NCBI GenBank assembly: GCA_028284295.1
Contig: JANQSB010000068.1
Location: 5,571 to 69,570 of the forward strand
DNA: 64,000 bases
Source: Myxococcota bacterium
GTDB taxonomy: Bacteria; Myxococcota_A; UBA9160; UBA4427
Reading direction: 5' to 3'
Of the stretch, positions 19,367 through 63,481 are shown piece after piece. The notes under the pieces are model-generated. The model searched no databases and was not told where the DNA came from. It saw only the letters and a list, made by a program, of their open reading frames with translations. How positions within the stretch are numbered: the stretch's first letter is position 1; the number at the start of each line of letters is the position of its first letter. Both the position numbers and the translations under genes were made by a program.

Positions 19367-20833
19367 CTACTGGCCCTGCGCCATCGAATAGCCGGGTTCA
19401 GCGTCCGCGAGCTCGTACAGGTTCTCGGTCTTGATCACCTCGAGGCCCGCCTGGTGGATCCGGTCCAGGAGCTTCAGCACGTCGCCGTAGTCCGTGGCTC
19501 GACATCCCATGAAGCGGCAGCGCCAATGGTCGGTGCGGAGCGTCTCGGAGAGGCCTTCGGGAAAGACCTTCACGCCCCGATTCGTGATCACGCGCAGATC
19601 GAAGGCCGCGTCCGCCAGCGGACCGAGTCGACGCCCGAGCTCGTCGGGGTCGCGATCGGCTTCCGACCACGCGAGGAACACGTCCACGCCCGCCAGGCGG
19701 CGCGGGCCGGGCGGCTCCGCGCGCCATTCGGGGAGCAGGAACCCGGTGCCCGTGTAGCGGACGGGCTCGAGGCGCTCGGGCAGCACCCCGAGTCGCTCGA
19801 TCACGGCGCGGGTGAAGGTCTCCGTGTCGGCGTGGATGCGCGAGAGGCCCTCGCGGTAGATGTCGGCCGTGTGGATCCCGTCCTCCAGGGTGCGGAGCCA
19901 CGCGTTCTTGATCTTCGTCGCGTGGGAGGACAGCCCGAGGTGGACCAGCATCTGGGTGGCCGCGACGATCAGGCCCGAGGGGTTGGCGACTCCCTTGCCC
20001 GCGATGTCGGGAGCCGACCCGTGGACCGCCTCGAACATCGCCGCATGGCGACCCACGTTCGTCGAGCCCGCGAGTCCGATCGAGCCGGCGACCTGCGCGG
20101 CGATGTCCGAGAGGATGTCGCCATAGAGGTTCAGCGTGACGATGACCTCGTAGCGCTCGGGCTGCGCCGCGACGCGTGCCGCGCCGATGTCGATGATCTC
20201 GTGGTGGGCCTCGATGTCGCCGTATTCAGCGGACACCTCCTCGAAGATCCGATGGAAGAGCCCATCGGTCATCTTCATGATGTTGTCCTTGGTCATGCAG
20301 GTGACCCGGCGTCGGCCGTAGGCCCGCGCGTACTCGAAGGCGTAGCGGATGATGCTCTCGCAGCCGGGCCGCGTGACGAGCTTGAGGCACTGCACGACCT
20401 CGTCGGTCTGCTGGTGCTCGATGCCGGCGTAGAGGTCCTCTTCGTTCTCCCGGATGATCACCAGGTTCATGCCCGGGTGGTTCGAGCTGACGAAGGGGCT
20501 GTACGCCTTGCACTGACGCACGTTGGCGAAGAGGCCGAGCGACTTCCGCAACGTGACGTTGACGCTCTTGTAGCCGCCGCCCTGGGGCGTCGTCATGGGT
20601 CCTTTGAGCAGGGTGGGGTGGGCGCGGAGCAGCTCCCAGGCGCGCTCGGGCACCCCCGAAGGCTCGCCGGCCTCGTAGGCGGCCTGGCCGAGTACTACGC
20701 TCTCGGTCTTCAGGGGAACCCGCGCGGCATCGAGGATGCACATCGTCGCATCCATGATCTCGGGGCCGATGCCGTCCCCCGGTGCCAGAACGATCGTTGC
20801 CGGTTCCTGTCGCGCTTGGTCGATGGGGTCCAT
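19367..20833 (-). CDS. icd: Isocitrate dehydrogenase (isocitrate/isopropylmalate dehydrogenase family) with a ~130-aa C-terminal extension, 488 aa
   Basis: ORF trimmed to ATG 20833, behind GGAGG. PGDGIGPEIM, NLVIIRENEEDLYAGIE, TLNLYGDILSDIAA and GSAPDIAGKGVANP motifs. Confidence 0.9.
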   Translation of the reverse strand: MDPIDQARQEPATIVLAPGDGIGPEIMDATMCILDAARVPLKTESVVLGQAAYEAGEPSGVPERAWELLRAHPTLLKGPMTTPQGGGYKSVNVTLRKSLGLFANVRQCKAYSPFVSSNHPGMNLVIIRENEEDLYAGIEHQQTDEVVQCLKLVTRPGCESIIRYAFEYARAYGRRRVTCMTKDNIMKMTDGLFHRIFEEVSAEYGDIEAHHEIIDIGAARVAAQPERYEVIVTLNLYGDILSDIAAQVAGSIGLAGSTNVGRHAAMFEAVHGSAPDIAGKGVANPSGLIVAATQMLVHLGLSSHATKIKNAWLRTLEDGIHTADIYREGLSRIHADTETFTRAVIERLGVLPERLEPVRYTGTGFLLPEWRAEPPGPRRLAGVDVFLAWSEADRDPDELGRRLGPLADAAFDLRVITNRGVKVFPEGLSETLRTDHWRCRFMGCRATDYGDVLKLLDRIHQAGLEVIKTENLYELADAEPGYSMAQGQ

Positions 20834-20927
20834 GGGCCTCCGCTTCGGGCGCAACCGGTAACATCGGCGAGTCCGGACCTATAGGCGAGTAGGAATTTTC
20901 ACGTCTTCATATAGGTTTTGTCGAAGC

Positions 20928-26188: not shown

Positions 26189-27595
26189 GTGAGAAGGGAA
26201 ATCAGGCGCTACGTCGAGAACGACGTCACGGGGCCCGACGAGGCGCTCGACGCGGGCGACGCCGAGGCGATTCGCGCGCGATGTCGGGAGGAGTTCGAGC
26301 GCGGCATCTCGGAGCTGCTCGAAGCCGCGCCTCCGGCAGCGGTGGCGCCCCGGCGCCGACGCATGGGTCAGGAGCTGTACGCCGGGCCGCTGGGGCTGGC
26401 CTTCGGATTCCTCCACATCCACGAGCGCACCGGCGAACGGGAGGCGATCGAGCGGGCGGCCGACTACCTCGACGTCGCGCTCGAGGCGATGGAACGCTCG
26501 AGCGTGCCTCGTCCGGAAGAGTGGCTCTCGTTCCACGCGAGTGGGGGCCTCCCCGCCGTGGCTGCCGTCGTGCGCGATCGCCTCGGAGACTCGGCAGCGT
26601 CCAAGCAGCACCTCGAGGACTTCCGCCGCGTGGCGGAGTGCGCCGCGAAGACCGACTTCCCGACGGAGGACCTGCTCTGGGGAAGGGGTGGCTTCTCCAT
26701 CGGCGCCGCCTTTCTCCGCGCCCGTCTGGGTGAGGCGAGCGTCCGCGACGAGCTCGTCGCCGCCGCGCTCGCGCGCACGATCGAGACCGGGCGGCGGCAC
26801 GCACGCGAGCATGCGCCCGATCTGACTCCCGGAGCTCACGGCTGTCCGCCGCTGCTCTACATCAACTTCGACCGATTCATGATGGAGTGCTTCGCCCGCT
26901 CGGCCATGGGCTCGCGCTCCCGTCCCGCACGGGGGCTGGCCGCCGTCGCCGCGCGAGTGGTGATGTGGATCGGAGAGCGGACGGAGCATCTCTCGCATCG
27001 CTACGACATCGGTCTCGTCCATGGGCTTCCCGGAGCGCTCTATCTGATGCTGCAGTTCCCCGAGCTGCTGGCAGGGCACGCCGCCACGAACGAGGTCCGC
27101 GCCTCCCTCGACTGTCTCGCCGACTGCATCGATGCCGAGCGCGGCATGCTCGAGCTGCTGCCTTCGCGCCACTCCGAGCCGGAGAAGTGCACGGACAAGA
27201 TCCACTGGTGCAACGGAACGACGGGCGCCGTCTTCCTCTTCGCACGCGCGTACGAGCTGTTCCGCGAGCCGGCCTACCTGGACGCCGCCCGTCGCGCCGC
27301 CGAGCAGGTCTGGCGCTACGGGCTGCTGCGCAAGGGCAACGGGCTCTGCCACGGGATCGCGGGCAACGCCTACGCGTTCCTCTCGCTCTACCGCGCGAGC
27401 TCCGAGAAGCGGCAGCTCGATCGTGCTCTCCACTTCGCCCGCTTCACCTGGACGGATCGCATCACCCGGGAGCAACGGGCTTCGGATCGTCCGTGGTCGC
27501 TCTACGAGGGCCGGATGGGGACCCTCTGCTTCTACCTCGACTGTCTCGACCCCGCGCGCGCTCGTTTTCCCGCGTTCGAAGTGGACGCGCCATGA
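26189..27595 (+). CDS. Stand-alone LanC-like (LANCL-type) protein
   Basis: 468 aa. Zinc-ligand motifs HWCNGTTG and GLCHGIAGN. Terminal SLYEGRMG resembles the eukaryotic LANCL ending. Confidence 0.85.
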   Translation: MRREIRRYVENDVTGPDEALDAGDAEAIRARCREEFERGISELLEAAPPAAVAPRRRRMGQELYAGPLGLAFGFLHIHERTGEREAIERAADYLDVALEAMERSSVPRPEEWLSFHASGGLPAVAAVVRDRLGDSAASKQHLEDFRRVAECAAKTDFPTEDLLWGRGGFSIGAAFLRARLGEASVRDELVAAALARTIETGRRHAREHAPDLTPGAHGCPPLLYINFDRFMMECFARSAMGSRSRPARGLAAVAARVVMWIGERTEHLSHRYDIGLVHGLPGALYLMLQFPELLAGHAATNEVRASLDCLADCIDAERGMLELLPSRHSEPEKCTDKIHWCNGTTGAVFLFARAYELFREPAYLDAARRAAEQVWRYGLLRKGNGLCHGIAGNAYAFLSLYRASSEKRQLDRALHFARFTWTDRITREQRASDRPWSLYEGRMGTLCFYLDCLDPARARFPAFEVDAP

Positions 27596-29458: not shown

Positions 29459-30075
29459 TGTCAGAAATTTCGATCGCGCCGGCCCCCGACGAGACCCCGG
29501 CGAACGGCCATACGACCCGGCGCCTCGAGACCCGCCGCAAGCTGCTGGAAGCGGGCGCCGAGCTCTTCGCCGAGGGCGGGGTGCGCGCCGTCACGAGCAC
29601 CCGCATCGCGCGAAGGGCCGGTGTGGCCACGGGCACCTTCTACCTCCACTTCCCCGACAAGCACGCGCTGTTCGAGGAGCTGGTGGACGCAGCCCTGGAG
29701 GAGATGCGCCCGCAGTCCGACGCCGAACGCGCCGGCTCGGGAGAGGACTCGATGCGCCGCGACCTGGAGCGGATGCTCGAGGTGGCCGCGCGCCGCCGGA
29801 ACCTGATCCGCGCCGTCTTCGACCGTGGCGAGAGCTCGGGTCTGGCCGAACGGATCCAGGACCGCATCGCGCGCGGTTTCGAGCAGCGATACGAGCGCGT
29901 GTTCCGCGAGCGCGGCATCCCGCTCCATCCGGGAGCTGCCGCCCAGGCCCGCGCGGCCGTGCTGGTTCGTGTCATCGCGTGGTGGGTCGAGGAGCCCGCA
30001 CGCGCAGAGCGAGACGAGATCGTCGACGTGTTGATGGCACTCGCCCCGGGGCGGGTGCAGGAGGAGTCCCCTTGA
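29458..30075 (+). CDS. TetR-family transcriptional regulator
   Basis: 205 aa. RRKLLEAGAELFAEGGVRAVTSTRIARRAGVATGTFYLHF. Confidence 0.9.
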   Translation: MSEISIAPAPDETPANGHTTRRLETRRKLLEAGAELFAEGGVRAVTSTRIARRAGVATGTFYLHFPDKHALFEELVDAALEEMRPQSDAERAGSGEDSMRRDLERMLEVAARRRNLIRAVFDRGESSGLAERIQDRIARGFEQRYERVFRERGIPLHPGAAAQARAAVLVRVIAWWVEEPARAERDEIVDVLMALAPGRVQEESP

Positions 30076-31400
30076 GCGAGACAGCGACCGCGCAGACCCA
30101 GCCCCTTCCGACCGGATTCCGGACCCCCGAGCAGGAGCAGGCGGCCAATGGCCGCGGTGTCGCCCCGGCCGACGAGCTGGCGCTGGAGGACCTCAACCCG
30201 CTCAACGCACACCTGTTCCGCGAGAACCGCTGGCACGGCTACTTCGAGCGCCTGCGCCGAGAGGACCCGGTCCACCTGAACGAGATCGAGACCGCCGGCC
30301 GCTACTGGTCCGTGACGAAGTACGACGACATCAAGGCGGTCAGCTCGGATTGGGAGACCTTCTCGTCGGCCCACGGAATCACCCTGGGATTCCGGGTCGG
30401 TTCCGACTCTGCGAACATGATGCAGCTGGGATCGCGTCCCCCCTTCATCTCCCAGGATCCGCCCACCCAGACCGAGCAGCGCAAGACCGTGCGACCTGCG
30501 GTGGCCCCCCGCAACCTCGCCAGGCTCGAGCCGCTCATCCGGGAGCGGACCTGCCACGTGCTCGACGCGCTGCCCGAGAACGAGAGCTTCGATTGGGTGG
30601 ATCGGGTGTCGATCGAGCTCACCACGTTGATGCTGGCGACGCTCTTCGACTTCCCGCTCGAGGATCGCCGCAAGCTGACCCGCTGGTCCGACGTCGTCTT
30701 CGCCATTCCCGAGCCCGGCGGCATCGTCGAGTCCGGCGACCAGAAGCGCGCGGAGCTGTTCGAGTGCCTCCAGTACTTCTCGCGACTCTGGGACGAGCGC
30801 CGGCAGAACCCCGGGGACGATCTCATCTCGATGCTCGCGCACGGAGAAGCCACCCGCGACCTGTCCGCCGCCGAGCACCTCGGCAACGTCCTGCTGCTCA
30901 TCGTCGGGGGCAACGACACGACCCGCAACACCATGTCGGGGAGCGTCTACTCGCTGATGCACCGCTTCCCGGATCAGGGACGCAAGCTGGTCGCGAACCC
31001 GGGCCTGATGCGGAACGCGGTGTCCGAGATCATCCGCTGGCAGACGCCCCTCAACTACATGCGCAGGACGGCGACCCGCGACTGCGAGCTGCACGGCCGG
31101 GAGATCCGGAAGCACGACCAGCTCCTGATGTGGTACGTGTCCGCCAACCGTGACGAAGAGGTCTTCGAGAACGGGGACGTCCTCGACATCGAGCGCCCGA
31201 ACGCGTCGCGGCACCTCTCCTTCGGCTACGGAATCCACTTCTGCATGGGCAGCCGGCTGGCCGAGCTGCAGCTTCGCGTGCTGTGGGAGGAGATCCTCGA
31301 GCGGTCCCTGAAAATCGAGGTGCAGGGGGAGCCGACCCGCGCCTTCTCGTCCTTCGTGAACGGGTACACGCATCTGCCTGTGGTGATTCGCCGCAGTTGA
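30072..31400 (+). CDS. Cytochrome P450, CYP153-like (terminal alkane/alkyl hydroxylase type)
   Basis: Frame of ORF 29979..31400. The probable TTG start at 30072 overlaps the TetR stop. LLLIVGGNDTTRNTMSG (CYP153-type I-helix), EIIRWQTP, and heme loop FGYGIHFCMGSRLA. Confidence 0.85.
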   Translation: MSETATAQTQPLPTGFRTPEQEQAANGRGVAPADELALEDLNPLNAHLFRENRWHGYFERLRREDPVHLNEIETAGRYWSVTKYDDIKAVSSDWETFSSAHGITLGFRVGSDSANMMQLGSRPPFISQDPPTQTEQRKTVRPAVAPRNLARLEPLIRERTCHVLDALPENESFDWVDRVSIELTTLMLATLFDFPLEDRRKLTRWSDVVFAIPEPGGIVESGDQKRAELFECLQYFSRLWDERRQNPGDDLISMLAHGEATRDLSAAEHLGNVLLLIVGGNDTTRNTMSGSVYSLMHRFPDQGRKLVANPGLMRNAVSEIIRWQTPLNYMRRTATRDCELHGREIRKHDQLLMWYVSANRDEEVFENGDVLDIERPNASRHLSFGYGIHFCMGSRLAELQLRVLWEEILERSLKIEVQGEPTRAFSSFVNGYTHLPVVIRRS

Positions 31401-44650: not shown

Positions 44651-46153
44651 TCAGTCGTAGCGGAACTCCTCGCCTTCGAGGTCGATGGCCGGGATCTCGT
44701 CCTTCTCGCGCCAGTAGTCCTGGGTGTGCTGCCACTCGGGCTTGTCGCCCCGCTTCGGCAACAGGTGCATGCTGCGCATCAGGTAGTTGGGGTTGAAGTT
44801 GTCCGGGTCGATCCACGGCAGCAGCGGCATGTCCGCGTCCTCCGCTCGCAGGCCGACTTCGACCCGGCGATACCCGTTGGCATCCATGTGCTTCAGCAGG
44901 CGGCAGACGAAGTCGCAGAGCAGATCGACGCGCAGGGTCCAGCTGGCGCGGAAGTAGCCGAAGATCCAGAGCAGGTTCGGCAGGCCGGTGAACATCATGC
45001 CGCGGTAGGTGAGGGTCTTCGCGAAGTCGAGGGGCTTGCCGTCCACCTCGAACTGGATGTCGCCCAGCACCGACAGGTTGAAGCCCGTCGCCGTCACGAT
45101 GATGTCGGCCTCGAGCTCGTCGCGCGAGCGCAGGCGGATGCCGCGCTTCGTGAAGCAGTCGATCTCGTCGGTCACCACCGAGGCCTTGCCCGCGCTGATG
45201 CCCTGGAAGATGTCGCCACTGGGGACGAAGGCGAGGCGCTGCTGCCAGGGTCGGTAGCGGGGCGTGAAGTGCTTCTCGACGTCGTAGCCTTCCGGTAGCA
45301 GCGCCTTCACGGCGCCGACCAGCAGCTTCTTCATGTCCTCGGGCTGGTCGATGCAGGCCTGGGTGACCTTGGCCTGGTCGGACAGGATCTTGCGACGGGT
45401 GATCTCGTGGATCCAGGCTTCGTCGATCTCGAGCTCGCGGAGGGTGTCGGCCATCTCGTTCTGGTTCTCGGCCGGGAAGAAGTAGGTGGGCGAGCGCTGC
45501 AGCATGGTGACGTGCTCGGTCTCGCCCGCGATGGCGGGGATCAGGGTGGCGGCTGTCGCGCCCGAGCCGATCACGACCACGCACTTGCCCGTGTAGTCGA
45601 GGTCTTCGGGCCAGGTCTGCGGATGGACGATCTCGCCCTCGAAGTCCTCCATGCCCTCCCATTCGGGGGTGTATCCCTGGGCGTGCCGGTAGTAGCCCTG
45701 GCACATCCACAGGAACCCGGCGGTGAAGACCACGGACTCACCGGTGTCGAGGCGCGTGGCCTCGACGGTCCACCGCAGGTCGTCGTTCGACCAGCTCGCG
45801 CGCTCGATGCGATGGCCGTAGCGGATGTGCTGCCCGAGGTCGTTCTCTTCGATGACCTCGTTCATGTAGGTCAGGATCTCGCCGGCCGTGGCGATGGGCG
45901 GACCCGTCCACGGCTTGAAGCGATAGCCGAAGGTGTACAGGTCGCTGTCCGACCGGATGCCCGGGTAGCGGTGCATGTGCCAGGTGCCGCCGAAGCTCTC
46001 GTAGGCCTCCAGCACGACGAAGCTCTTGTCGGGGCACTGCTGGGTCAGGTGGTAGGCGGCGCCCACTCCGGAGATGCCGGCACCCACGACGAGGACGTCG
46101 AAGTGCTCGGTGGGAGGGCCGGCGGGATCGGGGGCAACAGCGGGCTGGGGCAC
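44651..46153 (-). CDS. Class-B flavin monooxygenase (Baeyer-Villiger / EthA-like)
   Basis: 500 aa, GTG start. [32 protein letters not shown] (BVMO fingerprint-like), [13 protein letters not shown]. Confidence 0.9.
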   Translation of the reverse strand: MPQPAVAPDPAGPPTEHFDVLVVGAGISGVGAAYHLTQQCPDKSFVVLEAYESFGGTWHMHRYPGIRSDSDLYTFGYRFKPWTGPPIATAGEILTYMNEVIEENDLGQHIRYGHRIERASWSNDDLRWTVEATRLDTGESVVFTAGFLWMCQGYYRHAQGYTPEWEGMEDFEGEIVHPQTWPEDLDYTGKCVVVIGSGATAATLIPAIAGETEHVTMLQRSPTYFFPAENQNEMADTLRELEIDEAWIHEITRRKILSDQAKVTQACIDQPEDMKKLLVGAVKALLPEGYDVEKHFTPRYRPWQQRLAFVPSGDIFQGISAGKASVVTDEIDCFTKRGIRLRSRDELEADIIVTATGFNLSVLGDIQFEVDGKPLDFAKTLTYRGMMFTGLPNLLWIFGYFRASWTLRVDLLCDFVCRLLKHMDANGYRRVEVGLRAEDADMPLLPWIDPDNFNPNYLMRSMHLLPKRGDKPEWQHTQDYWREKDEIPAIDLEGEEFRYD

Positions 46154-48506: not shown

Positions 48507-49955
48507 CTAGCGAGCGATGTGGATCACCTTGCGCTGGGTGAACTCCAGCAGCCCGTCGCGGCCCAGCTCGGTGCCGATCCCCGAGCTCTTGGCACCGCCG
48601 AAGGGCACGCCGGGGTCGAGGTCCGCGTGCTTGTTGACCCACACCGTGCCCGACTCGATGCGCGCGGCCAGCTTCGTCGCGGCCTCGGGGTCCGACGACC
48701 AGACGCTGCCCCCCAGGCCGTCGCTCGAGCGGTTGATGCGGGCGAGCGCCTCTTCCGGGTCGCTGTACCGGATGACCGGCAGGAGGGGGCCGAACTGCTC
48801 CTCGTCGACGAGCCGCGAGCCCTCCGCGATGTCCCGGACGATGGTGGGCTCGATGAAGTAGCCGGGACGGTCGGGTACGCCGCCGCCGGCGATCACGCGG
48901 CCATGCTCGGCGGCGTCCGCGAGGATCGCCTTGACCTTCTCGAACTGCATCTCGTTCTGCAGCGGACCGAGCTCCACTCCCGGCTCCGTCCCGTCGCCGA
49001 ACTTCTTGCCGCGAGCGATCTCGGCGAGCTCGTCGCAGACGGCGTCGTAGATGTCGTCGTGGACGTAGAGCCGCTTCAGGGCGATGCAGATCTGGCCGTT
49101 GTTCCGGAAGGCCGCGTCGAAGAGCTTCGGCGCCACCTCCTTGGGATCGACGTCCGGCACCACCAGCCCGGCGTCGTTGCCGCCCATCTCGAGGGTGATG
49201 CGCTTCAGGGTGTCGGCCGCCGACGCCATCACCCCGGAGCCGGTGGCGGAGCTGCCCGTGAACGAGATCTTGCGCACCCCCGGGTGGGCGGTGAGCTGCG
49301 AGCCGAGGTCGTTGGCGTCGGCGATCACGTTGAGGACACCCGGCGGCAGCGCGTCCTTCAGCAGCTCGGCGAGTCGCAGGGTCGAGAGCGGCGTGGTCGG
49401 TGCGGGCTTGACGACCAGGGTGTTTCCCGTGACGAGCGCGGGTGCCAGCTTGAAGCCCAGCAGGACCAGCGGGAAGTTCCACGGGACGATCGCCGCGACG
49501 ACGCCCAGCGGCGCGCGGTGGATCTCGATGCGGCGCTCGTCGCCGTCCTCCACCACCTCGACGGGCAGGTCCATGGCGGCGAAGTAGCGCGTGAACATCG
49601 CCAGGCCGTGCGCCTCGGCGATGCCCTCGGGCAGGGGCTTGCCCTGCTCGCTCGTCAGGATCCGGCCGAGCTCCTCGGCGTTGGCGGTGATGATGTCGGC
49701 AACGGCCTCGAGGGCCTTGCGGCGCTCCGCGGTGGGAGTGGCGGCCCAGCCGGGCTGCGCCGCCTCGGCCGCCGCGACCGCTTCGTCGAGCTGCGAGGCA
49801 GAGGCCCGGGAGCAGGTCCCCGCCAGTGCTTCCGTTGCGGGGTTGATCACCTCGAGCGACTGCGCGCCGGGCACCATCTTTCCGTCGATCAAGAGCTCGT
49901 AGGCGGGCACTTCCTTCCTCCGGGATGGGACGGTCTCGTCCGTCGGGTCCTGCAC
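48507..49955 (-). CDS. NAD(P)-dependent aldehyde dehydrogenase
   Basis: 482 aa. VPWNFPL, FTGSSATG, LEMGGND, NNGQICIA (catalytic Cys), EEQFGP. Confidence 0.9.
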   Translation of the reverse strand: MQDPTDETVPSRRKEVPAYELLIDGKMVPGAQSLEVINPATEALAGTCSRASASQLDEAVAAAEAAQPGWAATPTAERRKALEAVADIITANAEELGRILTSEQGKPLPEGIAEAHGLAMFTRYFAAMDLPVEVVEDGDERRIEIHRAPLGVVAAIVPWNFPLVLLGFKLAPALVTGNTLVVKPAPTTPLSTLRLAELLKDALPPGVLNVIADANDLGSQLTAHPGVRKISFTGSSATGSGVMASAADTLKRITLEMGGNDAGLVVPDVDPKEVAPKLFDAAFRNNGQICIALKRLYVHDDIYDAVCDELAEIARGKKFGDGTEPGVELGPLQNEMQFEKVKAILADAAEHGRVIAGGGVPDRPGYFIEPTIVRDIAEGSRLVDEEQFGPLLPVIRYSDPEEALARINRSSDGLGGSVWSSDPEAATKLAARIESGTVWVNKHADLDPGVPFGGAKSSGIGTELGRDGLLEFTQRKVIHIAR

Positions 49956-52685: not shown

Positions 52686-53528
52686 TTGGAGGCGCCGATC
52701 GAGTTCGGAGGCGGGCGGGTCCGCCTGGAGGCGCACGAGGGGATCGCGCACGTCCTCCTGAGCCGCCCGGACAAGAAGAACGCTCTCGACGCGGGCATGT
52801 TCGAGGGCCTGCGCGAGGCGGCGCGCCACGTCGCCGGCGAGCCTTCGATCCGGGTCGTCGTCCTCTCGGGTGCGGGTGACTCGTTCTGCTCGGGTCTCGA
52901 CTTCGCGACCTTCGGCGACATGGCCGACGGCGGCCTCGACGCCGATCGGGACGACGTTCGTGCCGCTGCCGCCGACCTGTCCGAGGACGGAGCCAATGCC
53001 GCCCAGCAGATCGCCTGGCTGTGGCAGGAGCTGCCGATCCCCGTCATCGCGGCGGTCCAGGGAGCGGCCTTCGGCGGCGGCTTCCACGTCGCCCTGGGCG
53101 CCGACATCCGCTTCGTGGCACCGGACGCGCGCATCGCCTTCGTGGAGATCACCTGGGGACTGGTCCCCGACCTCTCCGGTACCCAGGCCCTGCGGCGTCT
53201 GGTGCCGCTGGATCGGGCCAAGAAGCTCGTGATGAGCGGCGAGCCGATCTCCGGCGAGCAGGCCGTCGCGTGGAACCTGGGGACCGAGCTCTCGGACGAT
53301 CCGCTCGAGGATGCCTTCGCGCTGGCGCGGGTCTTCGCGGGGCGAAGCCCGGACGCGCTGCGCGCGGCCAAGAAGCTCCTGAACGAGTCGGCCCTGGTGC
53401 CGCTCGCACGAGGTCTGGCGAACGAGTTCGACGCTTCGGCGTCGCTGATGGGCGGCGCGAACCAGATCGAAGCCGTGGTCGCGCGCCTGCAGAAGCGCCC
53501 GCCCGTGTTCCGCGACCCGGAGCCCTAG
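52686..53528 (+). CDS. Enoyl-CoA hydratase/isomerase (crotonase) family
   Basis: 280 aa, TTG start. VVLSGAGDSFCSGLDF, AAVQGAAFGGGFHVALGADIRF. Confidence 0.85.
   Translation: MEAPIEFGGGRVRLEAHEGIAHVLLSRPDKKNALDAGMFEGLREAARHVAGEPSIRVVVLSGAGDSFCSGLDFATFGDMADGGLDADRDDVRAAAADLSEDGANAAQQIAWLWQELPIPVIAAVQGAAFGGGFHVALGADIRFVAPDARIAFVEITWGLVPDLSGTQALRRLVPLDRAKKLVMSGEPISGEQAVAWNLGTELSDDPLEDAFALARVFAGRSPDALRAAKKLLNESALVPLARGLANEFDASASLMGGANQIEAVVARLQKRPPVFRDPEP

Positions 53529-54014: not shown

Positions 54015-54018
<4 letters not shown>
53557..54018 (-). CDS. GFA (CENP-V-like) zinc protein, 153 aa
   Basis: Tail of ORF 53557..55089, from GTG 54018 (GTGA overlap with the monooxygenase stop). [10 protein letters not shown]...[15 protein letters not shown]...RCPSCRG. 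Confidence 0.8.
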
Positions 54019-55496
<1,478 letters not shown>

Positions 55497-55574: not shown

Positions 55575-55919
55575 CTAGGCGGCGGCCCGGCTCCCCACGA
55601 ACTGGCTCAAGCGGGCGAGCGCCACGTCGTCGATCGACAGGAACTCGATGCTCACGCCGGTGGGCTCCTCGGGGCGTCGGCCGCAGCGCACGGCACGACC
55701 GCGCAGCTTGAGGGGCGGCTCGCCGTCCGGCAGGCACAGACAGATCTCGAGCTCGGCATCGATCGGCGGCCGCTGGCGGCCCTCGATGTAGATGCCGGAC
55801 TCGGTCAGGTTGACGGTGTGCGTGAAGGCGTCGACGCCGGCTCCGTCGCACTGGACCGGGAGGCGGACCGGGAGGCGGGGGGTCTTGCGTCTTTCCGTCG
55901 CGCTCTTGCCGTCGACCAT
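55575..55919 (-). CDS. PilZ-domain protein (114 aa)
   Basis: Tail of ORF 55575..57026. [10 protein letters not shown] (RxxxR) and NLTESGIYI (N-x-S/T-x-x-G). Confidence 0.75.
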
Positions 55920-56219
55920 GAATCCAGACTCCTGTGCCGGCGCACCGGCTGCTTTCGGGCGTTCCGTCCTCTTGTGAGTGGCCCGGAGAGCGCGCGGGGG
56001 GTCACGGCTTTCTCGCTGCCCCCTCGATTCTCCCGGTCGGGTTCCGGAACCTCTTTCCGGTGTCGCGGGCGCGGATGCAAGCGGCCCTTGCATCCGGGCT
56101 GCGAGCGGTCCGCGTGCCAGAGCTCGAGGCGGAGCCGCCGCGGCCGCGCAGCTCCTGCGCGTCTCAAGTGCGCCTCCGGGCCGGACGATTCCAGCGGGGC
56201 GGACCGAGTGGGAGAGAGC

Positions 56220-57167
56220 ATGAGCGCGCAGCTGCGCCGCCTGACCGGATCCGGCCCCTTCCAGGCCTTCATCACCGCGGTGATCGTGGCTGCGGGGGTG
56301 CTGGTCGGGCTGGAGACCGACGCCCGGATCGTCGCGGATCACGGCCGACTGCTGCACGTTCTCGACCGGGCGATCCTGGCGATCTTCGTCGTCGAGATCG
56401 CGCTCAAGCTCGGCGCGGAGGGCCACCGTCCCTGGCGCTTCTTCGGGGACCCCTGGAACGTCTTCGACTTCTTGATCGTCGGCGCCTGTCTGCTGCCCTT
56501 CGGCTCGAGCTCGGTGACGGTCCTGCGTGTCCTGCGGCTGCTGCGGGTGCTGCGTCTGGTACGGGCGCTGCCGAAGCTGCAGCTGCTCGTCAATGCGCTG
56601 CTCAAGAGCATCCCCTCGATGCTCTACGTCACCCTGCTGCTGGGGCTGCTCTTCTACGTGTACGGCGTGACCGGCGTCTTCCTGTTCCGCGACAACGACC
56701 CGGTCCACTTCGAGAACCTCGGCCTCTCGATCCTGTCGCTCTTCCGGGTGGTCACCCTCGAGGATTGGACCGACATCATGTACATCCAGATGTACGGCTG
56801 CGACGCCTACGGGTACGCGGCGAATCCGGAGCTCTGCACCCGGCCCCAGGCGACTCCCTTCCTGGCCCCGGCCTTCTTCGTCTCCTTCGTGCTCCTCGGC
56901 ACGATGATCACCCTGAACCTCTTCATCGGCGTGATCATGAACGGGATGGACGAGGCCCAACGGGAGAGCGCGGAGGCCGCTGGCGAGGACGGAGGCGACC
57001 CGAGCGAGACGCTGCCGGTGCTCCATCTGCAGGAGCGGCTGGCCTCGCTCCAGCGCTCGGTCGCGGCGCTCGGAGAGTCGGTCGAGGCGCTACTGCCCGA
57101 GGAGCGCGAAGCGGCGGATGGCGCTCCGCCTCGGGCCGAGAGCTCTGCTCGATCTCCTAGCTCCTGA
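56220..57167 (+). CDS. Single-domain voltage-gated cation channel of the BacNav (NaChBac) family, 315 aa
   Basis: Tail of ORF 54024..57167, from ATG 56220. S4 [19 protein letters not shown], pore [15 protein letters not shown]6 [23 protein letters not shown]-terminal coiled-coil-like [25 protein letters not shown]. Confidence 0.85.
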
Positions 57168-57771
57168 CCCCTCCCCGGAAGAGCGCGAGCGCGGCGGCCC
57201 CCAGCAGTACGAAAGCCGTGCCGGTGACGACCACGACCCCCGGAAGCGGTCCGATGTGGGCGCGGGCCAGGATCTCGCTGGCCTCGGTCGTCGCCTCGGG
57301 ATGACTGGCGAGCTTGAGGCCCCAGGCCGCGAGCTGGACGCCCAGCAGGTAGACGTAGACCCGTCGCAGGCGACGCGCGGCCGCCTTGGTGATGGACATG
57401 CTCGGGATCGTGGTGCCGAGCTCTCCCGCGAGCTCGCCTTCGAGCGACGGGTCGAGCGGAAGCGTTCCCTCTTCCGGCGCCGCCCTCAGGGCCGGGGCCA
57501 CGAGGCCGCGTTCCAGTACGAGCGCGCGCCGTTGCCACAGGTGGTAGAAGGTCAGTCGGCGGGCTTCGAGGAGCAGGAAGACCAGCGTGAGGAAGAAGCC
57601 GACGTGAACCACGTAGTGCGGGGACGCGGCGTTGCCGAGAGCGAAGGAGAGCACTGCGGCCGTCGTGCCGATCGCCCAGTTGGTGGTCGCGTCCATGCGC
57701 ATGCGCCAGATGTCGGCGCGGCCGACCAGGGCCCGGTAGTAGTGAACGAGAATCGTCGCGCGGTCGCTCAT
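57157..57771 (-). CDS. DUF2270-like integral membrane protein
   Basis: ORF 57157..57816, probable start ATG 57771 ([35 protein letters not shown]...[17 protein letters not shown]). Confidence 0.6.
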
Positions 57772-57908
57772 CGGTGGGGCCCCTTCGGCTTCGGTCGGGG
57801 AGGCGTTTCGCCCCATCCGGCCAGCATAGCCTCGGGTCGGTCGCGGAAGCGTGCCAAGGCCGCGAGCCGGTCGTCTAGAATCGGCGGGGATCCGGACGGG
57901 AGCACCAC

Positions 57909-59348
57909 GTGAAGCGCAGACAGCTGGAGACCTGCATCGTCGGTGCCGGCATGTCGGGGCTGCTCATGGCGATCCGGCTGAAGAAGGCCGGAAGGCCCTT
58001 CCAGATCATCGAGAAGGCGCACTCGGTGGGCGGGACCTGGCGGGAGAACCGCTACCCGGGCCTCACCTGTGACGTTCCGTCCTTCTTCTACTCCTACAGC
58101 TTCGAGCCCAACCCGGACTGGACCCATCGCTTCTCGCCGGGGCCGGAGATCCGCGCCTACTTCGAGCGGGTCGCCGAGAAGTACGGCCTTCTCGAGCACG
58201 TCCGCTTCGGCGAGACGATCTCGGCGGCGCGCTACGAGGGTGGGGCCTGGTCGATCGAGACCGGCCGCGGCGACCGCATCCGGGCCGAGGTGCTGGTGGA
58301 CGCCACCGGTCCGCTGCACATCAAGAACTACCCGGAGATCCCGGGCATGGACGACTTCGAGGGGGCGCTCTTCCACTCCGCCGACTGGGACGACGAGCTC
58401 GACCTCCGGGGCAAGCGGATCGCCGTGATCGGCAACGGCTCGACGGGCGTGCAGATGATGAAGCCGCTCGCCGAGCAGGCGAGCGAGCTCACCCTGTTCC
58501 AGCGCACGGCGCAGTGGATCTTCCCGGTGGGCAACCAGCGCTACAGCGAGAGCCAACGACGCTGGACCCGTCGCCTGCCGATCCTGGGATGGCTGACCCG
58601 GCAGTTCTACAAGCGACTCTTCGATCTCGCGTCGGTGGGTGTCACCCAGGACGGCTACTGGCGACGCAGGATGAAGAAGGGCTGCGAGGAGCACCTGGCG
58701 AGCGTTCGCGATCCGGAGCTGCGCGCCAAGCTCACGCCGGACTACGAGCCCGGGTGCAAGCGCCTGATCCTGAACCGGGACTTCTACCGCGTTCTCGAGC
58801 GCGACCACGTCCACCTGGTGACCGGGCGCATCGATCGCATCGAGCCACGGGGCGTCGTGACGGCCGACGGACGCCTGCACGAGCTGGACGTGATCGTGCT
58901 GGCGACCGGGTTTCGCGCCCACGACTGGGGTATCGACAACGTGGTGGGCGCGGAAGGCCTGAGCCTCGCCGAGGCCTGGGCCAGCGGGCCGCGCACCTAC
59001 CGCTCGATCACGATGCCCGGCTTCCCCAACTTCTTCATGCTCGTGGGGCCCAACAGCCCGATCGGGAACATCTCGATCATCGACGTCTCCGAGACCCAGA
59101 CCCGCTACGTGCTCGACTGCATCCGGCGCATCGAGAAGGCCGAAGGCCGGGCGCTCGCACCGAAACCCGAGGCCGCCGAGCGCTTCCAGGCGGAGCTGCG
59201 CGAGGCGATGAAGGGCACCGTCTGGATCACCGGCTGCAACAGCTGGTACCTCGATCCCGACGGGATTCCGACCTTGTGGCCCTGGTCGGCCGCGCAATTC
59301 CACCGCGTGATGCGCCGGCCGGAGTTCGGCGACTTCGACTGGATCTAG
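57909..59348 (+). CDS. Class-B flavin-containing monooxygenase (FMO/BVMO-like)
   Basis: 479 aa, GTG start. IVGAGMSGLLMA, VGGTWRENRYPGLTCDVPS, IAVIGNGSTGVQ. Confidence 0.85.
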   Translation: MKRRQLETCIVGAGMSGLLMAIRLKKAGRPFQIIEKAHSVGGTWRENRYPGLTCDVPSFFYSYSFEPNPDWTHRFSPGPEIRAYFERVAEKYGLLEHVRFGETISAARYEGGAWSIETGRGDRIRAEVLVDATGPLHIKNYPEIPGMDDFEGALFHSADWDDELDLRGKRIAVIGNGSTGVQMMKPLAEQASELTLFQRTAQWIFPVGNQRYSESQRRWTRRLPILGWLTRQFYKRLFDLASVGVTQDGYWRRRMKKGCEEHLASVRDPELRAKLTPDYEPGCKRLILNRDFYRVLERDHVHLVTGRIDRIEPRGVVTADGRLHELDVIVLATGFRAHDWGIDNVVGAEGLSLAEAWASGPRTYRSITMPGFPNFFMLVGPNSPIGNISIIDVSETQTRYVLDCIRRIEKAEGRALAPKPEAAERFQAELREAMKGTVWITGCNSWYLDPDGIPTLWPWSAAQFHRVMRRPEFGDFDWI

Positions 59349-59373: not shown

Positions 59374-60261
59374 ATGGAGGCAATCGTCCGCTACGGCTTC
59401 TACCCCTTCGTGCTGTTCGCCGCTGCGACCGGCGCCGTCCTCGCCTTGCAATCGGGCACGCCGCCCACGCTGGTGGTGGCGGCCGCCAGCGGAATCCTCA
59501 TCCCGGTCTGCCTGACGATGGAGCTCGTCCTGCCCGAGACGCCGCGGTGGCGCCTGCAACGCGGCGAGGCGTTCGCGGATCTCCTGCACATGCTGCTCTC
59601 CAGTCCGATCCCGATGGCGATCCTGCAGGCCACGCTCTTCGTCGCCGCCGTCGCCGCCTCCGGGGCGATCAGTCGGGCCGTGGGCTTCGGACTGTGGCCG
59701 ACCGACTGGCCGCTCGCCGCCCAGTCGCTGCTGGCGATCGCGCTGGCAGAGCTCGCGAACTACTGGATCCACCGGGGATTGCACGAGTCCCGCTTGTGGC
59801 CCCTGCACGCCGTCCACCACTGCTCGAGGCGGATGTACTTCCTCATCTCGATGCGCAAGCACCCCCTGCAGTCCTTCCTCACCTACGGGGGCAGGCTGTC
59901 GCTGCTGTGGCTGCTCGGAGCGACGCCGGAGTCGATCGCCGTCTACACGGTGTTCGTCACCGCGAACTCGCTGCTGCAGCACGCGAATCTGCGCATGGAG
60001 ACCGGACCCCTGGGCTGGGTGCTGGCGACTCCCGAGCTGCACCGACTGCACCACTCTCGTCGGCCGGACGAGCTCGACACGAACTACGGCGACTCGCTCA
60101 TCGTCTGGGATCGGCTCTTCGGGAGCTACCGCGCGCCCGACCCCGCGCGGCCGATGCACGATGCCATCGGCCTCCCCGAGATCGAGGTGCCGCAGACCTA
60201 CCTCTGCCACCTGAAGCTGCCCTTCGTCTGGAAGCGGCTCCACGAGGCTCGCGGCCGATAG
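59374..60261 (+). CDS. Sterol desaturase / fatty-acid hydroxylase superfamily membrane di-iron enzyme
   Basis: 295 aa. His clusters HRGLHE, HAVHH, LHRLHHS. Confidence 0.8.
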   Translation: MEAIVRYGFYPFVLFAAATGAVLALQSGTPPTLVVAAASGILIPVCLTMELVLPETPRWRLQRGEAFADLLHMLLSSPIPMAILQATLFVAAVAASGAISRAVGFGLWPTDWPLAAQSLLAIALAELANYWIHRGLHESRLWPLHAVHHCSRRMYFLISMRKHPLQSFLTYGGRLSLLWLLGATPESIAVYTVFVTANSLLQHANLRMETGPLGWVLATPELHRLHHSRRPDELDTNYGDSLIVWDRLFGSYRAPDPARPMHDAIGLPEIEVPQTYLCHLKLPFVWKRLHEARGR

Positions 60262-60919: not shown

Positions 60920-62212
60920 TCAGGACGAGCGCGCCACGCGAACCGGCAGCTGGGAGACGCCGCGCAGGGCCGTGTTGCTGCCCCAGGGCGGTCGCTCGCG
61001 AGCGAGCTCGATGCGGGGATAGCGGTCGAGCAAGGCGTCGAGTGCGACCCGGGTCTCGAGCCTTGCGAGTGACGACCCCAGACAGAAGTGGATCCCGTGT
61101 CCGAAGGACAGGTGGTTGTTGGGCGTACGTCCGACGTCGAGGATCTCGGGATCGTGGAACTCCTCCGGGTCGCGGTTGGCTGCAGCCATGGCGAGGATGA
61201 CCATCTCGCCCCGACCGATGCGCGTCGTCTTGAAGCTCAGGTCCTGTACGGCGATGCGCGCCGTCATGTGCACCGGTCCGTCCCAGCGAAGCAGCTCCTC
61301 GACGGCCGTCTCCATCAGCCCGGGTTCTTCGCGCAGCCGCGCGAGCTGGTCGGGATGGCGGAGCAGCGCGAGCAGGCCGTTGCCGATCATCTTCGTGGTC
61401 GTCTCGTTGCCCGCCACCAGCAGCAGCACGACCATCTGGTAGATCTCGCCTTCGTCCAGGCGCTCGCCGTCCTCCTCCGCGGCGATCAACGCGCTGAGCA
61501 GGTCGTCGCGCGGCTCCCTCCGGCGTTCGGCCACGATCGGCTCGAGGTAGGCCTCGAGCTCGCGCACGGCGCGGATCGAGGCGCGCAGGTCTTCGCCGGC
61601 GTCCGAGCCCAGCGAGCGCACCGCCTCGTCCGACCAATGCCGAAAGCGCTCTCGGTCCTCGCTGGGGACGCCGAGCAGCTCGGCGATCACGGTGACCGGT
61701 AGCGGGTAGGCGAGGGCGCCCACCACGTCGATCTCGGTCGCGTCGCCCCGGGCGTCGAGCAGCTCGTCGGCGATCTCGCGCATGCGTCTCTCGAGCGCCT
61801 TGACGGCGCGCGGCGTGAAGGCCTTGTTGACGAGGCCCCGCAGCCGGGTGTGACGGGGAGGATCCGAGCTGAGCATGCTCGGGTTCTCGAGCTCGGACTC
61901 GCTGGCGCCGGCCCGCAGCTGGGCCCGTCGGATGCGGGCCCAGTCCCGGCCGTGGCGGAAGTCGGACGACAGACGGCGATCGCCGAAGAGCTCGCGCACG
62001 TCGTCGTAGCCGGAGAAGACCCATCCCCGGGTCAGCCGGCTGCGGTGGACCGGCCGCTCCTCGCGCAGGCGACGGTACAGGGGGTGGGGGTTCTCGATGA
62101 AGTCCGCGCCCGTCGGGTTGAAGAAGAGCCCCGACTCGAGTCTCTCCCACAGACCGAGGCCGTTCACGATTCCGCGTCCCACGGCCCGACGGGCCCGGTC
62201 GGAGATTCCCAT
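60920..62212 (-). CDS. Cytochrome P450
   Basis: 430 aa. LLLVAGNETT (I-helix), EELLRW, heme loop FGHGIHFCLGSSLA. Confidence 0.9.
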   Translation of the reverse strand: MGISDRARRAVGRGIVNGLGLWERLESGLFFNPTGADFIENPHPLYRRLREERPVHRSRLTRGWVFSGYDDVRELFGDRRLSSDFRHGRDWARIRRAQLRAGASESELENPSMLSSDPPRHTRLRGLVNKAFTPRAVKALERRMREIADELLDARGDATEIDVVGALAYPLPVTVIAELLGVPSEDRERFRHWSDEAVRSLGSDAGEDLRASIRAVRELEAYLEPIVAERRREPRDDLLSALIAAEEDGERLDEGEIYQMVVLLLVAGNETTTKMIGNGLLALLRHPDQLARLREEPGLMETAVEELLRWDGPVHMTARIAVQDLSFKTTRIGRGEMVILAMAAANRDPEEFHDPEILDVGRTPNNHLSFGHGIHFCLGSSLARLETRVALDALLDRYPRIELARERPPWGSNTALRGVSQLPVRVARSS

Positions 62213-62266: not shown

Positions 62267-63481
62267 TCAGGCGGCTCCGGCCACTACCCGATTGCGCCCG
62301 CCCTGCTTCGCCTCCATCAGGGCCTGGTCCGCACGCTTGACCAGACCGGAGACCGTATCGCCGGGCCGGTAGTCGGCGACGCCGAAGCTCGCCGTGACCG
62401 CGGCGCGGGTCCCCTGACCGCTCGTCTCGATCAGGTCGCGCAGGCGTTCCGCGGCATTGAAGGCCCCGGGCAGATCGAGATTCGGAGCCACCAGGAGGAA
62501 CTCCTCGCCCCCCCAGCGGCCGAACACGTCGGTCTGGCGCCGACTGCGATCCATCAGCATCGCGACGCGCCGAAGCACGCGATCCCCTTCGTCGTGGCCG
62601 TGGGTGTCGTTCACTCCCTTGAATTCGTCGAGATCCAGCAGGATCACGGCCAGGCTGCCGCCCACCCGTTCGCACTGGAGGATCTCCTGCTCGAGCGCCA
62701 GGGTGATCGAACGCCGGTTCGCGATGCCGGTCAGGAAGTCGGTCTCGGCGAAGCTCCGCAGGTTCACGGCCAGCTTGTGGGTGTCGAGGAAGGTCATCTT
62801 GAGACGCGCGAATCCGTAGACGAGCATCAGGCAGCCGAGCTGCCCCATGAAGAACTCGGAGACGTCGCCGTGGTAGATCGTGGACGCGCCCGGGACCACC
62901 CAACGCCAGACGAGGGCCGCGCTTGCCAGCAGCAGGGTCAGGCTGAGCATCAGCGCACGCCGGCGATCGAAGACCAGGAAGGCGAAGAGATAGAGACAGG
63001 GAAACCAGATCAGCAGCTCGTAGGTGTCGAGCACCGGGATCAGCCCGGGCTTTCCGTTCGTCGCGGAGAAGTGGATCCGCTCCAGCAGCACGCCGCCGCC
63101 CACGAGGAAGAGCCCGAGCTCGGCGCCGCGCAGCCTTCCCTTCCAGGTCAGCAGGGTCAGGGCCGCGAACATGACCGCGAGCACCGGAACGATGACCCGC
63201 TCGACCGAGTCGATGTCCTTCATCGCGCCGAATACCCAGAAGACGGCGCTCAGCAGCGTGCCGGTTCCGGTGGCTGCGAACAGGATCGTCCGTCGCAGGC
63301 GCTCCGGTCCACCGGGGCCCAGGTCTTCGAGCGCGCTGCTCGGGATGGCGTCGCGCGACTCGTCGGCGCTCTGCTGGGGGCTCTCGCCGCTCAAGCGGGG
63401 TCTCCTCGTCGCAACGGTGCATCGGCAGGACGACCGTGTGTCGTTAGCCGCCGAACGCGTCGCGTTCGCTCGCCGCGTCAT
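62267..63481 (-). CDS. Membrane-anchored diguanylate cyclase (GGDEF)
   Basis: 404-aa ORF. An alternative TTG start at 63394 lies behind AGGAGA. Six hydrophobic segments, then GIANRR..., the RQTD I-site, and GGEEF. Confidence 0.85.
   Translation of the reverse strand: MTRRANATRSAANDTRSSCRCTVATRRPRLSGESPQQSADESRDAIPSSALEDLGPGGPERLRRTILFAATGTGTLLSAVFWVFGAMKDIDSVERVIVPVLAVMFAALTLLTWKGRLRGAELGLFLVGGGVLLERIHFSATNGKPGLIPVLDTYELLIWFPCLYLFAFLVFDRRRALMLSLTLLLASAALVWRWVVPGASTIYHGDVSEFFMGQLGCLMLVYGFARLKMTFLDTHKLAVNLRSFAETDFLTGIANRRSITLALEQEILQCERVGGSLAVILLDLDEFKGVNDTHGHDEGDRVLRRVAMLMDRSRRQTDVFGRWGGEEFLLVAPNLDLPGAFNAAERLRDLIETSGQGTRAAVTASFGVADYRPGDTVSGLVKRADQALMEAKQGGRNRVVAGAA

Follow-up and report, generated by a model that had tools for sequence, protein, structure and literature searches.

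The window, a stretch of 64,000 nucleotides from a Myxococcota bacterium, carries at positions 56220–57167 of the forward strand a complete gene for a single-domain voltage-gated cation channel with six transmembrane segments (6-TM), which we assign to the ancestor-like BacNav (AnclNav) group. The reading frame runs from ATG to TGA and comprises 315 codons plus the TGA. A putative Shine–Dalgarno-like run, GGGAGAG (56209–56215, forward strand), ends 5 nucleotides ahead of the start codon, and the N terminus agrees with the N termini of homologues in an alignment. Base composition changes at both ends of the gene: in the channel frame, GC2/GC3 goes from 0.75/0.77 upstream to 0.45/0.93 from position 56220 and to 0.87/0.54 past the stop codon. 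GC3 of the open reading frame (ORF) is 0.91, a strong coding signal.

The neighbours of the channel gene include a PilZ gene in divergent orientation, a DUF2270 gene that is convergent with the channel gene and overlaps it by 11 nucleotides, and flavin monooxygenases. The nearest database relative of the channel, at 77% identity, is instead flanked by genes for an AraC-family regulator and a nucleoside hydrolase. When six neighbours from the window were compared by tblastn with 84 related loci, a single weak match was obtained, to an enoyl-CoA hydratase some 5 kb away from the gene for the channel. Given the different surroundings of the 77% relative and this nearly empty search, we rejected the idea of an operon or a conserved partner, and conclude that the channel gene stands alone, without conserved partners. 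No channel paralogue was found within the window, a gathering-threshold Rfam scan of the whole window returned no matches, and a promoter and terminator scan gave nothing above the shuffle expectation. The isocitrate dehydrogenase encoded in the window is 100% identical to an NCBI protein on a 70.7-kb contig, and its second-best match, at 77%, comes from a Myxococcota MAG, so that the source is probably an uncultured Myxococcota bacterium.

Four lines of evidence (profile, PDB sequence matches, fold search and the tree described below) confirm that the product belongs to the BacNav family, as the original prediction had proposed. Residues 14–250 match positions 4–240 of the 241-position Pfam profile Ion_trans (PF00520) with E = 1.3e-48; no NCBIfam model matched the channel. 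Single-domain matches among PDB sequences are NavCt (2.7e-48), NaChBac (1.5e-45), NavMs (about 1e-41) and NavAb/CavAb (about 4e-34). T-type Ca2+ channels head the PDB list, but only because their four repeats sum; no single repeat exceeds about 76 bits, versus 168 bits for the single-domain NavCt, and a closer kinship to these eukaryotic channels was therefore rejected. An AlphaFold2 (AF2) model with a mean pLDDT of 87 contains S1–S6, both P1 and P2, and an extended helix at the C terminus, so that the intact 315-residue ORF, the Pfam match and the modelled helices agree on a single-domain 6-TM channel. In a Foldseek search of this model against the PDB, the best 50 matches are all NavAb, CavAb, NavMs, NavCt or NaChBac (E of about 1e-10 to 1e-8, probability 1.00). 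The TM-scores of these matches are only 0.3–0.47, presumably because the monomer model misses the sensor-to-pore arrangement of the tetramer structures.

Conservation was assessed in an alignment of 121 sequences, with the window channel as the reference row and its 120 closest proteins; all 51 invariant columns are present in the window channel. Alignment to NavAb, NaChBac and NavPp places the voltage-sensor domain S1–S4 at 56259–56576 of the forward strand (about residues 14–119), with helices in the AF2 model at residues 12–32, 35–66, 78–91 and 96–116. The countercharges E32 (S1), D49 and E59 (S2) and D83 (S3), together with F56, the aromatic residue of the charge-transfer site, align with the corresponding positions of NavAb and NaChBac. 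F56, E59, K63 and D83 are invariant in the 121 sequences, E32 is found in 119 and D49 in 96. The S4 segment (56520–56576, forward strand) has, on translation, the five Arg residues that had been predicted for it, one at every third position (R103, R106, R109, R112 and R115), and then K119. R103, R106 and R109 do not vary; Arg or Lys occupies position 112 in 121 of 121 sequences and position 115 in 108.

The pore module (56580–56954, forward strand; about residues 121–245) comprises the S4–S5 linker, S5, turret, P1, filter, P2, periplasmic loop and S6. Its helices in the AF2 model span residues 133–156, 167–178 (P1), 183–192 (P2) and 215–256. The turret has an invariant N159-D160-P161 motif, and S6 bears G227, T228 and N233, of which T228 is the equivalent of T232 in NavPp and T220 in NaChBac. 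Translation of positions 56754–56774 (forward strand), the codons originally assigned to the selectivity filter, gives T179-L180-E181-D182-W183-T184-D185, the same filter as that of NavPp. T179 and W183 are invariant and E181 is present in 120 of the 121 sequences. A tetramer of the window channel would have 12 filter carboxylates.

This filter had been singled out as ‘extra-acidic’, but among its relatives it is nothing special. Of the 120 closest proteins, 101 have TLEDWTD, and the motif also occurs in 58 of the 70 related genome loci readable by an automatic motif scan, as well as in several of the other 10; about 60 of 80 loci, spread over many phyla, thus carry it. We therefore rejected the idea of a rare filter, as most members of the clade carry TLEDWTD. 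It also fits the predicted ancestral BacNav filter, TLE(D/S)WTD (Liebeskind et al. 2013, cited in PMC7041947), a computational reconstruction that has no bearing on the remainder of the sequence. The filter follows the AnclNav pattern, in which position 7 is acidic or polar and position 6 is Thr or Val. Gly at position 4, the mark of CavMr-type filters, is replaced by Asp182.

The original prediction had proposed alignment to characterized BacNav, CavMr and NavPp sequences, and this comparison separates the window channel from all of them. By blastp, identity is 60% to NavPp (over 285 residues), 50% to CavMr, 37% to NaChBac and 32% to NavAb, and 32–43% to canonical BacNavs overall. The NavPp sequence used was checked against the P. 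pacifica SIR-1 locus, which encodes it with 100% identity. Within the pore module, identity is 72% to NavPp versus 53% to CavMr, and across P1–filter–P2 it is 79% versus 43%. No database record of the exact protein was found; with NavPp at 60% and the best database relative at 77%, near-identity to a characterized channel was rejected. In a neighbour-joining tree without bootstrap (266 trimmed columns; reference sequences from the dataset of the Shimomura 2020 paper), the window channel falls among long-loop AnclNavs with NavPp, outside the CavMr branch and away from canonical BacNavs. On sequence grounds, it belongs to the long-loop AnclNav subclade that includes NavPp. The protein is a new AnclNav/BacNav member, neither a rediscovery nor a new kind of channel.

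The long loop itself is the P2–S6 periplasmic loop (56796–56861, forward strand), 22 residues (193–214) that include Cys194 and Cys206 and form an insertion relative to canonical BacNavs. In the alignment it is missing from NavAb, NavMs, NaChBac and NavCt and found in NavPp and CavMr. Both cysteines are invariant in the 121 sequences. At related loci, the loop has two Cys residues in 41 cases, none in 28 and three in 1, but never one. The loop is modelled with a pLDDT of >90. A Cys-pair loop is absent from all solved BacNav structures, no AnclNav-group member occurs among the PDB sequence and Foldseek matches, and the NavPp and CavMr papers that we examined do not mention the loop. The co-conservation of the two cysteines suggests that a Cys194–Cys206 disulfide probably staples the periplasmic turret.

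Loop length also bears on whether the gene encodes a working channel. Two of the four AnclNavs tested in Sf9 cells were without current (PMC7041947), and the window protein could likewise be a silent homologue that is not expressed or has no voltage-gated current. The upstream scan returned no sigma-70-like promoter, although such a scan is uninformative in a genome of 69% GC. However, the silent pair are short-loop proteins with TFEDWTD filters, whereas both tested long-loop members, NavPp and CavMr, conduct. The intact ORF with its GC3 of 0.91, the complete set of invariant columns and the Shine–Dalgarno-like site also argue against silence, which we consider very unlikely.

Beyond S6, an acidic Gly/Pro-containing linker (56955–57008, forward strand; about residues 246–263) leads to the coiled coil. 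It has a helix break at residues 257–260 (pLDDT 78–86 in the AF2 model) and is little conserved among homologues. The coiled-coil segment (57009–57092, forward strand; residues 264–291) consists of four heptads with Leu, Ile, Val or Met at 100% of the a and d positions, lies inside a predicted helix (261–300 in the AF2 model) and corresponds in the alignment to the coiled coils at the C termini of NavAb, NaChBac, NavMs and NavPp. The original prediction called the C-terminal neck coiled-coil-like; for BacNavs, however, ‘neck’ denotes the flexible linker that precedes the coiled coil, and the coiled-coil-like part is the segment distal to it. The remaining residues, 292–315 (57093–57164, forward strand), form a Pro/Ala/Ser/Glu-rich tail with no equivalent in the reference channels; pLDDT is about 56 for residues 301–315, and the tail is probably disordered and unconserved.

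The most informative comparison is with NavPp (ZP_01909854), from the marine myxobacterium Plesiocystis pacifica SIR-1 (Shimomura et al. 2020, eLife 9:e52828, PMC7041947). The original prediction referred to a marine-myxobacterial Na+ channel that is blocked by Ca2+ and has this or a very similar filter; that channel is NavPp, and its filter is exactly TLEDWTD (PMC7041947). NavPp prefers Na+ (PCa/PNa 0.308, or about 0.31), shows a low-affinity block by external Ca2+ and Sr2+, and has its activation moved to positive voltages by these ions (PMC7041947). The window channel shares with it not only the filter but also the filter flanks (LSLFRVV before and MY after), the long P2–S6 loop and its two cysteines, the turret motif NDPxHF, a 12-residue S6 motif with the T232-equivalent Thr, and the C-terminal coiled coil. 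The two differ at 40% of residues. S4 has five Arg in the window channel versus R-R-R-K-K in NavPp, whose loop is longer by one residue. The C-terminal domains are only about 31% identical, with no sequence relationship between the necks or between the C-terminal tails, and the organisms differ.

CavMr, the native Ca2+-selective AnclNav of Meiothermus ruber, shares the architecture and the Cys-pair loop at 50% identity, but its filter is TLEGWVD, with Gly and Val at positions 4 and 6 where the window channel has Asp and Thr. Its filter flanks are FSIL and VLR, compared with FRVV and IMY in the window channel. The canonical BacNavs (NaChBac, NavAb, NavMs, NavCt, NavAe1 and NavSp1, and the engineered CaChBac and CavAb) provide the best fold matches and have in common with the window channel a single 6-TM domain, an Arg-rich S4, the TLExW core, the P1–filter–P2 pore, and a neck and coiled-coil C terminus. 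They lack the 22-residue loop and the Cys pair, and have four S4 Arg residues rather than five. Their native filters, TLESW(A/S)x, lack Asp at both position 4 and position 7; the published sequences of NaChBac (TLESWAS) and NavAb (TLESWSM) agree with the form of the Na+-selective filter given in the original prediction.

Also correct was the earlier statement that added Asp residues confer Ca2+ selectivity on such filters: TLEDWAD (a NaChBac mutant) and TLEDWSD (a NavAb mutant) are Ca2+-selective (PMC7041947). These mutants share all three acidic residues with the window filter, position 6 being the single difference, and on this basis the window protein could be strongly selective for Ca2+, in the manner of CavAb and CaChBac. 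We regard this as extremely unlikely. An acidic filter gives Ca2+ selectivity in canonical scaffolds but not in the NavPp scaffold: NavPp, with the identical filter, is not Ca2+-selective, and NavPp-T6S and NavPp-T6A, which copy the engineered filters exactly, remain Ca2+-blocked (PMC7041947). The D4G mutation, by contrast, makes NavPp Ca2+-selective; Gly4 is the residue on which the Ca2+ selectivity of AnclNavs chiefly depends, and mutants of CavMr and NavPp with the same filter behave alike (PMC7041947; PMC8677417). Acidity is no predictor of Ca2+ selectivity in the AnclNav clade; Gly at position 4 is. Because the clade needs Gly at this position and the window channel has Asp182, Ca2+ selectivity is not expected in it.

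A different possibility is that pore residues outside the filter impose a preference like that of CavMr, in which case the channel would prefer Ca2+ but be poorly selective, mainly admitting Ca2+ while leaking K+ and Cs+. CavMr-Pp, which is CavMr carrying TLEDWTD, has a PCa/PNa of 13.8 and discriminates poorly among monovalent ions (PMC7041947), and therefore residues outside the filter matter; 28% of the pore of the window channel differs from that of NavPp. Moreover, the authors of that study see Ca2+ preference as the basic property of the CavMr/NavPp architecture and suggest that the Na+ preference of NavPp may be a species-specific adaptation to its marine habitat (PMC7041947), and half of all aligned residues of the window channel are identical to those of CavMr. 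The filter flanks, however, are of the NavPp type and not of the CavMr type (FSIL-TLEGWVD-VLR), and both the pore identities and the position in the tree, in the NavPp cluster and outside the CavMr branch, point away from CavMr. We find a Ca2+-preferring channel rather unlikely.

On homology to NavPp, we consider it likely that the window protein forms a depolarization-gated, Na+-preferring and Ca2+-modulated homotetramer of the AnclNav group. The earlier suggestion of a Ca2+-permeable or Ca2+-modulated channel is, for this filter on this scaffold, the expectation that the literature supports, by homology to NavPp at 60% overall and 72% in the pore. If the channel works as other members of the family do, depolarization would move S4 outward, the S4–S5 linker would then open the S6 bundle crossing, and the coiled coil would hold the four subunits together. 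Four copies of TLEDWTD would line the filter with one Glu ring (position 3) and two Asp rings (positions 4 and 7). By analogy with NavPp, Na+ would be preferred over K+ and Cs+, with some Ca2+ passing (PCa/PNa of the order of 0.3), and millimolar external Ca2+ or Sr2+ would lower the conductance and shift activation to more positive voltages.

We also considered a structural reason for the difference between scaffolds. A disulfide-stapled outer vestibule might explain why this filter would give Na+ preference with Ca2+ block here but Ca2+ selectivity in NavAb and NaChBac, which would make the long-loop AnclNavs, with the window channel among them, a structurally distinct pore class. They would then also offer a prokaryotic precedent for cysteine-rich extracellular turrets, which are regarded as a trait of eukaryotic 4×6TM channels. 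This proposal is tentative and we think it quite unlikely.

The window channel adds one more sequence to a very large and already characterized clade in which the acidic filter is the consensus, and its value as a discovery is low. Its Cys-pair turret, common to the whole long-loop subclade, is a reasonable target for a first AnclNav structure. In practice, the channel has some use as a naturally occurring variant in which the NavPp filter sits within an altered pore, and it could help to map the non-filter residues that decide between Na+ preference with Ca2+ block, as in NavPp, and Ca2+-preferring non-selectivity, as in CavMr-Pp.

The channel gene is an ATG-to-TGA open reading frame of 315 codons (56220–57167, + strand) in a genome of ~69% GC. 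A GGGAGAG run ends 5 nt ahead of the ATG, and the N terminus of the product agrees with those of homologues in alignment. In the channel frame, GC2/GC3 changes from 0.75/0.77 over the preceding 300 nt to 0.45/0.93 at 56220, and to 0.87/0.54 past the stop; the shift at 56220 therefore places the translation start at or very near that position.

The protein has a voltage sensor whose S4 bears six charges, a P1–filter–P2 pore with three carboxylates per subunit and a C-terminal coiled coil. Translation bore out the original prediction of a five-arginine S4 at 56520–56576 (+ strand; [19 protein letters not shown], with Arg 103, 106, 109, 112 and 115, then K119) and of a selectivity filter at 56754–56774 (+ strand) that reads TLEDWTD inside [14 protein letters not shown]. 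The sensor countercharges and charge-transfer residue (E32, D49, F56, E59 and D83) are conserved in alignments, as are the S6 residues G227, T228 and N233. An AlphaFold2 model from a 121-sequence alignment (mean pLDDT 87, pTM 0.74) contains S1–S4, the S4–S5 linker, S5, P1 (residues 167–178), P2 (183–192), a 22-residue loop, a long S6 and a C-terminal helix. Residues 264–291 form four heptads in which every a and d position is L, I, V or M, and they fall inside a predicted helix (261–300) that follows a break at 257–260. The C-terminal neck had been described as coiled-coil-like; the coiled coil stands but the term does not, because ‘neck’ in the BacNav literature denotes a flexible segment, and the heptads lie distal to it.

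Pfam Ion_trans covers residues 14–250 (E = 1.3e-48), and the best single-domain sequence matches in the PDB are NavCt (2.7e-48), NaChBac (1.5e-45), NavMs (~1e-41) and NavAb/CavAb (~4e-34). Eukaryotic 24-TM Cav and Nav channels outrank BacNavs in that list only because four repeats are summed; they were rejected as closest kin, the best single repeat scoring ~76 bits versus 168 bits for NavCt. The best 50 Foldseek matches of the model in the PDB are all NavAb, CavAb, NavMs, NavCt or NaChBac. A neighbour-joining tree places the channel among the long-loop members of the ancestor-like BacNav group (AnclNav) with NavPp, away from the Bacillus and NavAb-like groups, and we regard the AnclNav assignment as practically certain. 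At E <1e-20, the channel has more than 4,300 protein matches. The nearest among 5.8 billion is 77% identical, all others are ≤66% identical and a database look-up found no record of the exact sequence. The channel is thus a further, previously unrecorded member of a characterized clade, with the clade-consensus filter.

That filter is not unusual. TLEDWTD, the predicted ancestral BacNav filter according to Shimomura et al. (PMC7041947), is shared by 101 of the 120 closest proteins (the remainder mostly have TLEGWT(D/E)). In a set of 80 related loci drawn from GTDB species representatives, the motif scan could read 70, of which 58 have this filter, as do several of the 10 left over. These loci span Myxococcota, Planctomycetota, Verrucomicrobiota, Bacteroidota, Spirochaetota, Cyanobacteria, Gemmatimonadota, Latescibacterota and others. 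In some relatives (loci L031, L066, L075, L076 and L073, with the filters TGEDWTD, TQEDWTD, TAEDWST, TGDAWTD and TGEGWVD), a small or polar residue takes the place of the position-2 leucine. They may be natural counterparts of engineered NavAb L176 mutants (G, A, Q, N or T; the equivalent position), which gain divalent-cation block (PMC10349818).

Aligned with characterized channels, as the original prediction had proposed, using sequences from the source data of PMC7041947, the protein is nearest to NavPp (60% identity over 285 residues; 72% in the pore module), followed by CavMr (50%; 53%), NaChBac (37%; 44%) and NavAb (32%; 35%). The NavPp sequence used matches the one encoded by the Plesiocystis pacifica SIR-1 locus at 100% identity, and 60% overall identity rules out that the channel is NavPp itself. 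NavPp, from a marine myxobacterium, has the filter TLEDWTD, prefers Na+ (PCa/PNa 0.308) and is blocked with low affinity by external Ca2+ and Sr2+, with activation shifted positive (PMC7041947); it is the Ca2+-blocked Na+ channel with a like filter to which the original prediction had referred.

By analogy, the channel probably behaves like NavPp, because mutants of CavMr and NavPp behave similarly when their filters are the same (PMC8677417, PMC7041947) and because Ca2+ selectivity in this clade is set by glycine at filter position 4 (Asp182 here), not by charge; NavPp-D4G turns Ca2+-selective (PMC7041947). As in the family, four subunits would assemble as a tetramer, depolarization would move S4 outward and the S4–S5 linker would open the S6 gate. 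As in NavPp, Na+ would be favoured over K+ and Cs+, Ca2+ permeability would be modest and millimolar external Ca2+ would lower conductance. CavMr carrying TLEDWTD nevertheless has a PCa/PNa of 13.8 and poor monovalent discrimination (PMC7041947), so Na+ preference is partly scaffold-dependent and the NavPp-like reading calls for caution. It is unlikely that our channel is likewise Ca2+-preferring and poorly selective, given that its filter-contacting residues follow the NavPp pattern ([14 protein letters not shown]-xMY), whereas those of CavMr differ (LTLFSIL-TLEGWVD-VLR). A silent channel is very improbable, and high Ca2+ selectivity more so, as NavPp given the engineered CavAb or CaChBac filter (mutants T6S and T6A) remains Ca2+-blocked (PMC7041947). 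The suggestion of Ca2+-permeable or Ca2+-modulated behaviour spans the two leading options, NavPp-like and Ca2+-preferring, and is supported by these analogies.

The channel gene stands alone, without conserved partners. In a comparison with 84 related loci, none of six window neighbours adjoins the channel gene there, the sole match being a weak enoyl-CoA hydratase ~5 kb away; the 77% relative has other neighbours, and the 64-kb window holds no paralogue. A divergent stand-alone PilZ-domain gene (55578–55916, − strand) lies 303 bp upstream. PilZ domains are known c-di-GMP receptors, and 5 kb downstream is a GGDEF diguanylate cyclase gene (62270–63481, − strand). In none of the 84 loci does the channel gene again adjoin a PilZ gene, so the arrangement is probably coincidental. 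Downstream, a convergent DUF2270 membrane-protein gene (57160–57816) overlaps the channel gene tail-to-tail by 11 nt (57157–57167), leaving no space for an intrinsic terminator between the two; the promoter and terminator scan gave no signal exceeding shuffle expectation, and an Rfam scan of the window gave no match.

Flavin monooxygenase genes flank the channel gene on both sides. Oxidative-enzyme genes crowd around it (44654–46153 (−), 54018–55496 (−), 57909–59345 (+), 29979–31397 (+), 60923–62212 (−), 59374–60258 (+), 48510–49955 (−) and 52686–53525 (+)): three FMO/Baeyer–Villiger-like flavin monooxygenases, two cytochromes P450, a fatty-acid hydroxylase, an aldehyde dehydrogenase and an enoyl-CoA hydratase, which may constitute a lipid or xenobiotic oxidation neighbourhood. 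Elsewhere, a DabA-family gene for a probable inorganic-carbon transporter subunit (5661–8525, − strand; Pfam E = 8e-264) directly adjoins a SulP-family permease gene (8532–10157, − strand), and the window also encodes isocitrate dehydrogenase (19370–20854, − strand) and a LanC-like (lanthionine synthetase C-like) protein (26189–27592, + strand). The isocitrate dehydrogenase has a 100% identical database counterpart and then, at 77%, a match in a Myxococcota MAG, and the source is probably an uncultured myxococcotan; the collection with the identical enzyme lacks the channel protein, for which its best match is 77% identical.

Between P2 and S6, the channel carries a 22-residue periplasmic insertion (residues 193–214; 56796–56861, + strand) that is present in NavPp and CavMr, whereas canonical BacNavs lack it. 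Every sequence in the 121-member alignment has both Cys194 and Cys206, and the loop is modelled at pLDDT >90. The loops encoded at 70 related loci contain two cysteines (41 loci), none (28) or three (1) but never a single one, the both-or-neither pattern that a structural disulfide predicts; the loop is thus probably a disulfide-stapled turret. The pair also occurs in the NavPp locus and most of the 80 related loci. No solved BacNav has the loop, and the matches of our PDB sequence and Foldseek searches include no AnclNav structure. PMC7041947 does not mention cysteine, disulfide or the P2–S6 loop, and in a 2021 review (PMC8677417) such words occur only in one reference title and one figure legend. 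A review of channel turrets characterizes the bacterial turret as short and deals mainly with the cysteine-rich loops of eukaryotic 4x6TM channels (PMC4436565). The Cys-pair loop is a trait of the whole subclade, not peculiar to this gene, and as such is part of the residual value of the finding; the channel itself could serve as a natural scaffold variant of NavPp.
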